Shown here: in pieces, positions 8,962 through 56,755 of the stretch | Position numbering within the stretch: position 1 is the stretch's first letter | Layout of the letters: each line of letters starts with the position of its first letter | Assembly: GCA_001513045.1 (NCBI GenBank) | Contig: LFSB01000010.1 | Coordinates: 33,900 to 97,899, forward strand | From: Clostridiales bacterium DTU089 | GTDB taxonomy: Bacteria; Bacillota; Clostridia; Oscillospirales; Acutalibacteraceae | Reading direction: 5' to 3' | DNA: 64,000 bases | Made by a program: the position numbers and the translations under genes | Notes under the pieces: generated by a model | The model's input: only the letters and a program-made list of their open reading frames with translations | Told to the model about the DNA's origin: nothing | Databases searched by the model: none

Positions 8962-8993
8962 CAAACCGGAATTTGTGCGCGCACGCACAAATT
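8962..8993 (+). repeat. Short hairpin repeat H (copy 1)
   Basis: ACAAACCGGAATTTGTGCGC is shared 20/20 with 54554-54573. It forms AATTTGTGCG-CGCA-CGCACAAATT, a 10-bp stem. Confidence 0.7.
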
Positions 8994-9001
8994 ACAGTTT
9001 A

Positions 9002-9181
9002 TTCAAGTGATATGCCGACTTCGTCGGCGTGATATTCATGCCTTGCGACAAGAGTGATATTTCTCGCTGCGCTCGAAGTGATATTCTAATCGCGTCCAAA
9101 ACGCGCGAAGTGCATATCACTACCGAAGGTAATATCACGCGACGAAGTCGCATATAACTCGTGCTTGCGCGAATAGAACTG
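9002..9181 (+). repeat. Heptamer-hairpin structured element, copy A (candidate sRNA or structured DNA site)
   Basis: GTGATAT at 9007, 9029, 9054 and 9078, separated by hairpins. ATATCAC/ATATAAC at 9114, 9132 and 9152, also separated by hairpins. Same skeleton as 56471-56647. Confidence 0.85.
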
Positions 9182-9212
9182 AAAAACCGCCTTGCAAAGC
9201 AAGACGGTTTTT
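9182..9212. terminator. Bidirectional intrinsic terminator shared by element A and tRNA-Leu
   Basis: A5, CCGCCTTGC-AAA-GCAAGACGG, T5. The identical 30-mer recurs at 55459-55488. Confidence 0.75.
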
Positions 9213-9213
9213 C

Positions 9214-9300
9214 TGGTGCCGATGACCGGGCTTGAACCGGTACGATGTTGCCACCGAGGGATTTTAAGTCCCTTGCGTCTGCCAATTCCGCCACATCGGC
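9214..9300 (-). tRNA. tRNA-Leu (anticodon UAA), CCA encoded
   Basis: Reverse complement folds as a cloverleaf. Acceptor GCCGATG/CATCGGC, anticodon stem AGGGA/TCCCT with loop CTTAAAA, long variable arm, T-arm ACCGG-TTCAAGC-CCGGT, 3' ACCA. Confidence 0.92.
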
Positions 9301-55026: not shown

Positions 55027-55255
55027 TGTGTCACCCCACATAATATAACTATTAGGAGTTGCTTTCAATTTATAGCAAAGACGGTCTCGTTGCTACAAAT
55101 TCCGATTTGCCGAGTTGTTTTTAAAGTTATTCTATCATGTCTTTGCGACTATTTCAACCTCGTGTCCCTGTTTTGGTAAGTCTGAATCTTTTTTAAAGCA
55201 GAAAACGAAGAACGGATGAAGACGGGATTCGCCATAATGGGCGACTTCATTTTAG

Positions 55256-55312
55256 TGTCAGTAGGGGGATATGAACCCGAAGCCGATTTTTGGGGTGGAT
55301 TCGTACCCTCAC
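55256..55312 (+). repeat. Direct repeat DR1 flanking element C
   Basis: TGTCAGT..GGATATGAACCCGAAGCCGATTTTTGGGGTGGATTCGTACCCTCAC, about 88% identical by eye to 55490-55549. Confidence 0.8.
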
Positions 55313-55322
55313 AAAGGAACGA

Positions 55323-55455
55323 ATGAAATATTGCTGTCGCAATATGAAATAATCCTTGCGGATTATGAAATTTCCTGCTTTCGCAGAAAGTGAAATAAAA
55401 TTTGCCCCTTATGTGCCGCAGCATATTTTACTTGCCCGCGTGGCAAATTTCATTG
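55323..55455 (+). repeat. Heptamer-hairpin structured element, divergent copy C
   Basis: (A/G)TGAAAT at 55323, 55344, 55365 and 55390, separated by hairpins ATTGC-TGTC-GCAAT and AATCC-TTGC-GGATT (same loops as copy B). Long-range helix AAATTTGCC/GGCAAATTT. Confidence 0.75.
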
Positions 55456-55488
55456 AAAAAACCGCCTTGCAAAGCAAGACGGTTTTTT
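55456..55488. terminator. Bidirectional intrinsic terminator of element C
   Basis: Same CCGCCTTGC-AAA-GCAAGACGG hairpin as at 9187-9207, flanked by A6 and T6. Confidence 0.7.
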
Positions 55489-55489
55489 C

Positions 55490-55549
55490 TGGCAGTGTAA
55501 GTGGATATGAACCCGAAGCCAATTTTTTTGGGTGGATTCGTACCCTCAC
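55490..55549 (+). repeat. Direct repeat DR2 flanking element C
   Basis: Second copy of DR1. It occupies the position that a tRNA occupies next to copies A and B. Confidence 0.8.
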
Positions 55550-55588
55550 GGCGATAGGGTTAACATAATCCACACGGCGGAAATGAAG

Positions 55589-55999
55589 TTAACACATAAC
55601 CGGTTTCCACGCAAAGGGCAATAAATCACTTGCTTTTACTTTTATCAATTCGCCGTATTCATCATTTACAATGACTTTTATATCGGGACAATATTCAAAT
55701 AACATTTGACGGCAATTCCCGCAAGGTGAAATTACACAATTAAGATGTTTCTCATGGACAGCGACAATGGTGTCAAAATCTCTTTCGCCTGCCGAAATAG
55801 CAATACCCATTGTTATGTATTCCGCACAAGAACCATGGATACCGTCACAATTTACTCCTTTATAAACATGCCCGTTGCGACATAGTAATGCGCATCCGAC
55901 TGTATGATTATATATACCATCATCAAAATTCTGTTCTAATATATTTAGGCCTTCCTTTATTAGTTCCCTGTCTTTTTCGGTTATTGTATATTTCTCCAC
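55589..55999 (-). CDS. Small cytidine-deaminase-fold protein, blasticidin-S deaminase (Bsr/BSD)-like
   Basis: Zn ligands (H/C)AE (GSCAEY) and PCGNC. The FDTIVAV block and overall length of 136 aa resemble Bsr as I remember it. GTG start with GAGGAG SD. Confidence 0.75.
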   Translation of the reverse strand: MEKYTITEKDRELIKEGLNILEQNFDDGIYNHTVGCALLCRNGHVYKGVNCDGIHGSCAEYITMGIAISAGERDFDTIVAVHEKHLNCVISPCGNCRQMLFEYCPDIKVIVNDEYGELIKVKASDLLPFAWKPVMC

Positions 56000-56069: not shown

Positions 56070-56426
56070 TCAACATTTGCTTTTCTTTGCGGTGTTGATG
56101 GAAGCAATGAGCATACGGCGAATTGATCCGCAGGTGCTTTGTAGTGATTGATATTGCTCGTTTGGTATATAGCCGGTCTCCGAAAGCAACTCAAGCCAAT
56201 ACTCGGTTTCATAACACTCTTTTTGCGCGATTTCAAGCTTCGATATGAAATCTTTTGTTCCTTGCGCATATTGTGCTTCATGAAGATTTGCGCCGATTGA
56301 TGTTCCGGAACGCAAAAGTTGATTGGTCAGTACCGATTCCCGTTGATTTGCTTTTATATCTCTGCAAAGATAGACGATTTGCTTTGCAAATTCTTTGGCT
56401 TTATTCCTTAAAATGCTATCAGCCAC
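56070..56426 (-). CDS. Four-helix-bundle protein (23S rRNA intervening-sequence protein family)
   Basis: LLRSGTSIGANLHEAQYAQGTKDFISKLEIAQKECYETEYWLELL is the family signature. Confidence 0.78.
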   Translation of the reverse strand: MADSILRNKAKEFAKQIVYLCRDIKANQRESVLTNQLLRSGTSIGANLHEAQYAQGTKDFISKLEIAQKECYETEYWLELLSETGYIPNEQYQSLQSTCGSIRRMLIASINTAKKSKC

Positions 56427-56470
56427 AAGTATCACCTCTTTAATAAAGTATAGTATAAATCTTTAGCTCT

Positions 56471-56647
56471 GTAAAGTGATATGCCGCTGTCGCGGCGTGA
56501 TATTCTTGCCTTGCGGCAAGAGTGATATTTCTCGCTGCGCTCGAAGTGATATTCTATTCGCCTCTCACGCCCGCAGGCATATCACTCGGCGTAGCCGAAT
56601 ATCACGCCCCAAAGGGGCATATAACTCGCCGCAGGCGAATAGAACTG
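56471..56647 (+). repeat. Heptamer-hairpin structured element, copy B (candidate sRNA or structured DNA site)
   Basis: GTGATAT at 56476, 56497, 56522 and 56546. ATATCAC/ATATAAC at 56579, 56599 and 56619. Hairpins lie between every pair of heptamers. Confidence 0.85.
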
Positions 56648-56680
56648 AAAAAAGCACATCGCATTGCGATGTGCTTTTTT
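56648..56680. terminator. Bidirectional intrinsic terminator shared by element B and tRNA-Gly
   Basis: A6, GCACATCGC-ATT-GCGATGTGC, T6, ending 1 nt from the tRNA CCA end. Confidence 0.8.
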
Positions 56681-56681
56681 C

Positions 56682-56755
56682 TGGAGCGGAAGAGGGGAAT
56701 CGAACCCCCGCTATCTGCTTGGGAAGCAGAAGTTCTGCCATTAAACTACTCCCGC
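56682..56755 (-). tRNA. tRNA-Gly (anticodon CCC), CCA encoded
   Basis: Reverse complement is GCGGGAG-TA-GTTTAATGGCAGAAC-T-TCTGC-TTCCCAA-GCAGA-TAGC-GGGGG-TTCGATT-CCCCT-CTTCCGC-T-CCA, a 74-nt cloverleaf. Confidence 0.92.

Follow-up and report, generated by a model that had tools for sequence, protein, structure and literature searches.

What is a compact array of hairpins, bracketed by direct repeats, doing at a place where a tRNA would be expected? This question is raised by positions 55256–55549 of a 64,000-nt stretch of contig LFSB01000010.1 from Clostridiales bacterium DTU089 (the window hereafter, whose numbering is used throughout). An earlier reading of the letters, made without database searches (the sequence-only reading), had recognised three copies of the array in the window, named A, B and C, and had described copy C as a divergent one that was either part of a tandemly duplicated unit of element and partner or an insertion footprint. 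Comparison with the covariance model assigns copies A, B and C to Gut-1 (RF01706), a family already catalogued in Rfam with its function unexplained. In its defining paper Gut-1 was presented as a probable non-coding RNA known from human-gut sequence only, with no function, and it has been listed since 2010 (PMC2864571). Our analysis suggests that the direct repeat (DR) around copy C is a rare, lineage-specific spacer at the position of a tRNA end, and that it is best read as a docking or junction module carried with a cassette-like Gut-1 unit, a reading for which we consider the case to be evenly balanced. A DNA cassette that was inserted or reshuffled fits the locus better than a small-RNA gene with a partner.

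Copy C and the Gut-1 family

Each of these elements is a dyad of two successive Gut-1 arrays on opposite strands, and either strand reads sense and then antisense heptamers. The Gut-1 model matches both halves of all three copies, which supports the family membership that had been proposed for copy C. The covariance scores are 44.2 bits (E 6e-7) on the plus strand (55292–55376) and 23.3 bits on the minus strand (55365–55455) for copy C, 66.8 bits (minus) and 38.9 bits (plus) for copy B, and 49.1 bits (minus) and 35.3 bits (plus) for copy A. With 44.2 bits copy C falls below the Rfam gathering score for Gut-1, which is 50 bits. Its left half aligns across the full 77-position model and is 92–95% identical to copies on contigs C6 and C10 of the same genome and 78–87% identical to copies in many congeners. 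Copy C is a sub-threshold but clear member of the family.

Three consecutive hairpins flanked by four (G/A)UGAAAU heptamers, the arrangement that defines Gut-1, are present in copy C. The four (A/G)TGAAAT heptamers that had been reported at 21–25 nt spacing are found as ATGAAAT starting at 55323, 55344 and 55365 and GTGAAAT starting at 55390 (spacings of 21, 21 and 25 nt). TGAAAT triplets at such spacing occur twice in the window, both times in copy C, where 0.01 occurrences are expected. The heptamer of copy C does differ from that of copies A and B, as had been observed, but copy C is not a divergent type. It carries the consensus heptamer of the Gut-1 model, (G/A)UGAAAU, of which the GUGAUAU heptamers of copies A and B are variants.

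The spacers between the heptamers of copy C form flush hairpins (ATTGC-TGTC-GCAAT, AATCC-TTGC-GGATT and TTTCCTGC-TTTC-GCAGAAA). Two of their loops, TGTC and TTGC, are common to the hairpins of copy B (GCCGC-TGTC-GCGGC and TCTTGCC-TTGC-GGCAAGA), a likeness that had already been seen in the letters. The long-range helix that had been described is also present, as an inverted repeat with arms of 13 nt (55394–55406 and 55442–55454) that are 92% complementary. The 3' domain is indeed the shorter one, the inverted half being degenerate with only two recognisable heptamers (ATTTTAC at 55425 and ATTTCAT at 55447) and the low minus-strand score given above.

Copy C adjoins a bidirectional terminator hairpin whose identity with the terminator beside copy A is real, although its extent had been misplaced. 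The identical stretch is a 31-mer (55457–55487, matching 9182–9212) and not a 30-mer at 55459–55488, which lies one base off and includes a sixth T not present in copy A. The two terminators agree over these 31 nt though the array subtypes differ, which is a case of module reshuffling. Near-identical families of terminator hairpins are common to unrelated tRNA genes, with or without arrays. A Logan contig (L078) that leaves the locus at the terminator was judged to be an assembly walk through the 31-mer shared with copy A and not a variant. A further degenerate unit that had been suspected at 55149–55255 did not hold up, as the segment has no covariance-model match at E≤10 and its alignment to the unit is at chance level (p=0.37 and 0.53).

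The direct repeats

The flanking repeats, which had been put at about 57 nt, are genuine. They are 90% identical between 55261–55291 and 55497–55527 and 96% identical between 55287–55312 and 55524–55549, with a one-base indel in a T run. Alignment with a third copy extends the similarity through the junction CA(C/G)+AAAA, and the repeats therefore span about 55250–55312 (DR1, 63 nt) and 55484–55549 (DR2, 66 nt). Their edges are sharp and no similarity was detected beyond them (p=0.37 and 0.53). The downstream repeat does stand where copies A and B meet the CCA end of a tRNA: the junction ...CTGCCA-G plus A-run of DR2 corresponds to the ...CCA-G plus A-run of the tRNA (DR2 ...CACTGCCA-G-AAAAAA, tRNA-Gly ...CGCTCCA-G-AAAAAA, the first hyphen marking the junction).

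The DR has exactly three copies in the genome, namely DR1, DR2 and C28:46786–46861, and each of them lies against a Gut-1 unit in the position and orientation of a tRNA. That the DR might be a common genome-wide repeat, a possibility raised in the sequence-only reading, is ruled out by this count and by the placement of all three copies beside Gut-1 units. The third copy is located just after the remnant of an array end; directly behind it come CAG and AAAAAA, another terminator and half an array, which has the other heptamer subtype. The DR therefore recurs as a spacer between Gut-1 units, with a different terminator and array subtype. It was not found in the 60 relatives searched. A 17-mer of the DR gave 31 matches in 185,579 species genomes, which is the number expected by chance, and the six that were inspected, including all three from Eubacteriales/Oscillospiraceae, were chance matches. 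In the metagenome scan only the contig of the genome itself was recovered, and the plasmid search gave no match; one phage-labelled scaffold matches the array and not the DR.

The idea that the DR belongs to the gene for another small RNA is not borne out. No Rfam family matches it at E≤10 and it folds no better than its shuffles (z −1.5 to +0.05), and it was rejected as a known or structured RNA. It was also rejected as coding sequence: an overlapping open reading frame of 91 aa has no Pfam match, and neither this frame nor an overlapping one of 54 aa (not scanned) matches the gene calls of a related contig.

On the tRNA strand each DR carries two boxes that resemble GGTTCRANTCC with at most one mismatch, and such boxes occur at 202 non-tRNA sites in 4.9 million positions. 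In DR2, 16 of 18 positions agree with tRNA-Leu(caa) in its T-arm region (shuffle p=0.015; for DR1 p=0.065), and weak matches of a DR profile in relatives land on the T-arms and 3' ends of tRNAs. No second copy of the 3' end of tRNA-Gly is present in the window, and a copy of it at the far side of the island was looked for and not found. A commoner module, the 'tail', follows other arrays and starts with a T-arm-like box, GTTCAAGTCC. Four of its five copies lie directly after arrays and the fifth is located 1.25 kb downstream, beyond a cargo gene.

Gut-1 units in the genome and the genus

The genome of 2.45 Mb (59 contigs) contains 32 Gut-1 half-matches and about 17 double arrays. When the 3' flanks of all its tRNA genes (ARAGORN) were compared, the order of CCA-G, A-run/T-run terminator hairpin and array was found behind 11 of the 45 genes, and the array therefore lies downstream of the bidirectional terminator of the tRNA, on the side of the tRNA. 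In the sequence-only reading copies A and B had been said to meet a tRNA CCA end; what is present is not a convergent small-RNA gene but a dyad-symmetric double array downstream of that terminator. Units also follow each other in tandem. The end of contig C28 (tRNA-Gln) runs on into the start of C49, with four tandem units of which three are near-identical (period 313–314 nt), and C40 contains two. In the genus, Gut-1 was found in 90 of 98 genomes, and in relatives the arrays are located also behind tmRNA genes and behind the terminators of some protein genes.

Units bracketed by repeats are present at other loci. At L068, terminator and array are enclosed by a 140-nt repeat, which combines part of the terminator of tRNA-Leu with a conserved hairpin module and the final 20 nt of the tRNA; the 16-nt tRNA end is present three times. 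At L118, a unit consisting of terminator, array, tail, second terminator and module lies between the end of tRNA-Leu(tag) and a second copy of its last 20 nt. In contig C3 of the genome itself, a 75-nt repeat brackets an insert, and a 23-nt 3' fragment of tRNA-Ser stands right before the terminator of the array. The 16-nt 3' end is duplicated in 7 of the 27 listed loci.

A hairpin-rich module of about 75–100 nt was seen between the own terminator of a tRNA or tmRNA gene and a duplicated 20–23-nt 3' fragment of the same gene (L068, L072/L108, L073/L127, L074, L107, L117, L118 and L133). In relatives this module opens with an inverted copy of the local T-arm and has the core CGGCGAAGCCGAACAYAATCGGGTGTTCGCGYAGCGAATG, which was not found in the genome studied here. 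Its units repeat every 150–160 nt, up to three times in L117. A 24-nt palindrome (AATTTGTGCG..CGCACAAATT) is present after copy A (window 8970–9000) and twice behind tRNA-Leu(caa) of contig C56 (about 117100 and about 116000), where the pair brackets a 227-aa cargo gene between an array and a tail module; copy A looks like an empty version of this cassette. Another heptamer, AATGAAT / ATTCATT, occurs in hairpin-free runs after the same kind of terminator behind tRNA-Lys(ttt) in C4 and tRNA-Glu(ttc) in C31 and at C56:116980–117100.

Presence and absence among relatives

The suggestion that the family is mobile or recombinogenic is supported in the genus by one clean pair of filled and empty sites with a 6-bp target duplication, in addition to the repeat-bracketed and tandem units. 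In this pair, G110:C12 has a 357-bp insert, which contains a Gut-1 double array, within the loop of a terminator hairpin with a 13-bp stem; G022 has the uninterrupted hairpin, and the two share flanks of 97% identity. The insert has a 6-bp duplication, GCATTC, and a 9-bp subterminal inverted repeat (GTTGATAA(A/G)G). At a second locus an array is present in G022 and none in G110, with untidy boundaries. Tandem units of about 93 nt (ATCGACCGACGGCGTACAAGGGTACGCCGAGG...) were observed beside a Gut-1 array at L131 2240–2480 (G022:C43) and at G110:C47; these units are present in both congeners and the Gut-1 array in one only. As general ends of Gut-1 units, the GTTGATAA inverted repeats were rejected, with 2 weak cases in 37. 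Since this subterminal inverted repeat is not a common feature, Gut-1 arrays may be moved by more than one process.

The presence/absence polymorphism that had been looked for at copy C was not seen across three independent assemblies, namely that of the genome itself and two contigs, L077 (ENA, digester) and LSQX01036807.1 (NCBI, metagenome); repeat, copy C and repeat are present in all three. Both additional contigs are 99.3% identical to the window and free of gaps, with one base different within 55200–55600, and the related contigs that carry the locus come from anaerobic-digester metagenomes. A synteny comparison for an empty site at alr found congeners that are 65–69% identical, with no tRNA nearby. 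The Gut-1 family is thus mobile in the genus, and at the copy C locus no polymorphism was seen; such polymorphism was confined to other loci in other species.

The island and its neighbouring genes

The features of the locus are collected in Table 1. The island is AT-rich, with 31–42% G+C as against 47–57% in its flanks, and its order on the minus strand is tRNA-Gly(ccc), terminator, copy B, PF05635 (Avd-like) gene, deaminase-fold gene, DR2, terminator, copy C, DR1, GNAT gene and further genes.

Table 1. Features of the locus and of the compared copies A and B, in window positions (strand as recorded)
Feature	Position	Strand	Remarks
Copy A region	9005–9300	-	copy A, GTGATAT type, 9005–9181; terminator about 9179–9215; tRNA-Leu(taa) 9214–9300
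GNAT acetyltransferase gene, 149–158 aa	54592–55068	-	downstream of DR1; promoter-like site TTGAAA-17-TAGAAT at 55157–55129
DR1	55250–55312	-	on the tRNA (minus) strand just after copy C; two T-arm-like boxes (GGTACGAATCC, GGTTCATATCC); ends ...CTGACAC+TAAAA
Copy C, dyad-symmetric Gut-1 double hairpin array	55313–55455	.	covariance model, heptamers, folding
Bidirectional intrinsic-terminator hairpin	55455–55489	.	A6, 16-nt arms, T6; arms 55455–55470 and 55474–55489
DR2	55484–55549	-	on the minus strand immediately ahead of the terminator, placed and oriented like a tRNA 3' end; ends ...CACTGCCA-G+AAAAAA
Cytidine/dCMP-deaminase-fold gene, 136 aa	55589–55999	-	cargo upstream of DR2 on the minus strand
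PF05635 gene (Avd-like, '23S rRNA IVS protein')	56070–56435	-	E 4.6e-29; directly after copy B
Copy B, Gut-1 double array	56474–56647	.	GTGATAT heptamer type; covariance model
Terminator and tRNA-Gly(ccc)	56647–56755	-	terminator 56647–56681, tRNA 56682–56755; array of units docked on tRNA-Gly(ccc)

A good sigma-70-like promoter site, TTTACA-17-TATACT, is located on the minus strand at 56475–56447, immediately after copy B and ahead of the Avd-like gene, and the site before the GNAT gene is likewise a good one. The arrays thus stand between a terminator and the promoter that comes next. The genome has two PF05635 genes. In a sample of relatives (tblastn), the start of an Avd-like gene was found within 400 nt of 2 of 29 arrays, and most arrays are therefore orphans without an adjoining Avd-like gene. 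In this genus, the association of the arrays with the Avd-like protein is accordingly not a tight one.

The second PF05635 gene of the genome (C57:19417–20000, minus strand) is bracketed by a 38-nt direct repeat with the sequence of tRNA-Leu(cag) in its 5' half, as far as the anticodon loop. The first copy stands alone as an orphan fragment; the second belongs to the intact tRNA. In place of a Gut-1 array, this gene is flanked by inverted runs of the hexamers AATGCA / TGCATT. In an unverified 'Bacteriophage sp.' scaffold from human faeces (L130, MT835590.1:13312–16394), gene end, terminator, Gut-1 double array and Avd-like gene stand in the same order as in the island. The Gut-1/Avd-like module may also travel on phage-like DNA.

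Possible origin of the repeat-bracketed unit

On the minus strand the island is a chain of modules. The chain starts at the CCA-G of tRNA-Gly, followed by terminator, copy B, Avd-like gene, deaminase gene and DR2; a second G, terminator, copy C and DR1 follow, and then the GNAT gene with its own promoter. In the reading of the DR as a docking or junction module, the DR would imitate a stable-RNA gene at its 3' end, or derive from one by decay, with its T-arm-like boxes and the CCA-G junction in DR2. Units of terminator and Gut-1 double array are docked against such 3' ends throughout the genome and the genus. The arrangement of repeat, unit and repeat (A-B-A) could arise when a unit carrying its own docking module recombines beside a resident copy, through accretion, Campbell-type or site-specific, like that of tandem arrays at tRNA genes. 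A target duplication from a staggered cut does not give this arrangement. In support of the docking reading stand the placement of Gut-1 units behind tRNA genes, the three-copy distribution of the DR with its T-arm likeness and sharp edges, the bracketed units of the same shape at other loci, the insertion polymorphism in congeners, the terminators shared by different arrays and the almost wobble-free stems. The DR would then serve as a recombination or docking site and the Gut-1 element would act as DNA. A recombinase or reader would act in trans; none is encoded in the island, and the Avd-like protein beside copy B is a candidate heptamer binder only.

A bolder extension, which we consider unlikely, would treat the terminator with its Gut-1 double array as an unrecognised, non-autonomous DNA cassette that docks between the 3' end of a stable RNA (T-arm...CCA) and its terminator. 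Its insertion would regenerate a surrogate landing pad such as the DR, and cassettes with small cargo (Avd-like, deaminase, GNAT) would pile up behind tRNAs as an integron-like platform without resident integrase. A reader acting in trans, possibly the Avd-like four-helix-bundle protein, would recognise the heptamers, and the Gut-1 'non-coding RNA' would be a DNA recombination or binding site.

Several observations weigh against the docking reading. No empty site was seen at the copy C locus in the three assemblies, and the repeats are about 10% diverged, so the event would be old. The sole clean insertion is unlike copy C: its duplication measures 6 bp, and its 9-bp subterminal inverted repeat is missing from other copies. 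DR1 has no CCA and no terminator following it. The T-arm likeness of the DR is modest and was spotted post hoc; it is suggestive and not a proof. Homology of the DR with the tail module (GTTCAAGTCCTCATTTCAAAAA...ATCTTTTTTGTAACC) had been seen in an alignment by eye, which was not upheld. The nhmmer profile of the tail misses the DR, and therefore we claim for the DR only a position shared with other spacers and not homology. No recombinase gene is located in or beside the island, and none of the five tyrosine recombinase (PF00589) genes of the genome adjoins an array. The genome also has no reverse transcriptase gene (PF00078), and tRNA-primed reverse transcription was rejected on this ground.

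The main rival is that a segment was simply duplicated locally, through unequal crossing-over or slippage during replication in a spacer rich in repeats, with no dedicated mobility and with a DR that is functionless and was copied accidentally. In favour of it are the divergence of the repeats by about 10%, their stability in three assemblies and the lack of a recombinase nearby, and the near-identical tandem units of C49 demonstrate that local amplification occurs. However, a simple tandem duplication gives A-B-A-B, and here A-B-A is found with no trace of a second B. The third DR copy, located on another contig in the same register with a different terminator and array subtype, is also at odds with a local event, as is the use of the local tRNA end by the bracketed units of other genomes. 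We regard this explanation as doubtful.

Next in rank comes the possibility that the array of copy C is a plus-strand small-RNA gene ended by the terminator that it shares with the neighbouring tRNA-like end, the DR being a second functional RNA, promoter or leader (the 'partner'). In its favour are the original proposal of Gut-1 as a non-coding RNA (PMC2864571), the folding of copy C, which on either strand is far more stable than that of shuffles (z −5.6 and −8.4), and a weak promoter-like site, CTGACA-16-CATTAT, that overlaps the end of DR1. The promoter scan, however, returned no plus-strand site upstream of copy C, and the putative partner folds at shuffle level, matches nothing in Rfam at E≤10 and is absent from 60 relatives. 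The stems themselves also speak against a gene of this kind, as they have almost no G:U pairs and belong to an element with the same symmetry on either strand. A structured RNA will usually accommodate G:U pairs on its transcribed strand. In 85 hairpins of tRNA-adjacent arrays, 465 of the 489 stem pairs are Watson-Crick, 3 are G:T, 2 are A:C and 19 are other. This near absence of G:U pairs, together with the perfect dyad grammar, implies that both strands are equally constrained. Such constraint suggests either DNA that is folded or bound by protein or transcription from both strands, and the wobble-poor stems argue, though indirectly, against an RNA-only constraint on Gut-1. A small-RNA gene with a partner appears improbable to us.

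A miniature transposon, in which the 177-nt terminator-plus-array is the mobile piece and the 57–63-nt repeats are its target-site duplication, is very improbable: one congener does show the insertion of a Gut-1-bearing segment with a target duplication, but that duplication is 6 bp and not about 60, no terminal inverted repeats bound copy C, and the DR recurs at a third locus, so that it is not an arbitrary target, and shares features with the docking position at tRNAs. The simple insertion footprint of the sequence-only reading does not fit either, as a target-site duplication would hardly measure 57–63 nt, differ by about 10% between its copies and recur at a third place.

Taken with its relatives, the locus suggests that Gut-1 is a modular, symmetric DNA element. 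It lies against terminators, for the most part of tRNA and tmRNA genes, and forms chains with small cargo genes. The presence of Gut-1 differs between close relatives. If this view is correct, an Rfam family would have to be reinterpreted, and Clostridia of the gut and of digesters would have a new route to build small gene-cassette arrays at stable-RNA genes. The DR offers testable targets in excision junctions across the repeats and in binding by the Avd-like protein.

Comparison with known systems

Like repetitive extragenic palindromes (REP/REPIN) and miniature inverted-repeat transposable elements (MITEs), Gut-1 units are dispersed intergenic hairpin repeats that stand in inverted pairs by terminators, and one insertion has a short duplication and subterminal inverted repeats. 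Unlike these, the hairpin sequences of Gut-1 vary from copy to copy with the heptamer alone constant, and no RAYT or transposase partner was identified. The signature of a MITE is missing at copy C, which has no terminal inverted repeats and no short target-site duplication (its repeats being 57–63 nt), whereas both features are present at G110:C12.

Integron cassettes are small units, promoter-less or with a single gene, that are separated by imperfectly palindromic attC sites built on 7-nt core and inverse-core boxes, with structure conserved over sequence. The Gut-1 chains likewise have small cassettes and structured sites with 7-nt boxes in which structure is kept more than sequence. However, no IntI-type integrase or attI is present, and the platform is the 3' end of a stable RNA. 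An attC site is one bulged stem, whereas each Gut-1 site has many hairpins with perfect stems and no strand-marking extrahelical bases.

Integrase-mobilised islands and cis-mobilisable elements (CIMEs) accrete in tandem at tRNA and tmRNA genes and are bounded by duplicated tRNA 3' ends. The present island, too, has units piled up behind a tRNA gene, with a copy of a putative docking sequence at the bounds of each, cargo genes between the units and no recombinase inside, and the loci of relatives use true 20–23-nt fragments from the T-loop to the CCA. The likeness is incomplete, as the DR is only T-arm-like and does not copy tRNA-Gly, the units measure a mere 240 nt or so and no cognate integrase was found among the five PF00589 genes of the genome.

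The closest match is the Gut-1 RNA motif itself (RF01706), which has the same three short hairpins separated and flanked by (G/A)UGAAAU heptamers. It was described from the human gut only, as a probable non-coding RNA (PMC2864571), whereas the related contigs here come from digesters, and the wobble-free stems suggest an element at the level of DNA. The catalogued motif corresponds to half of the element seen here, in which two inverted arrays form a dyad that is docked on a terminator.

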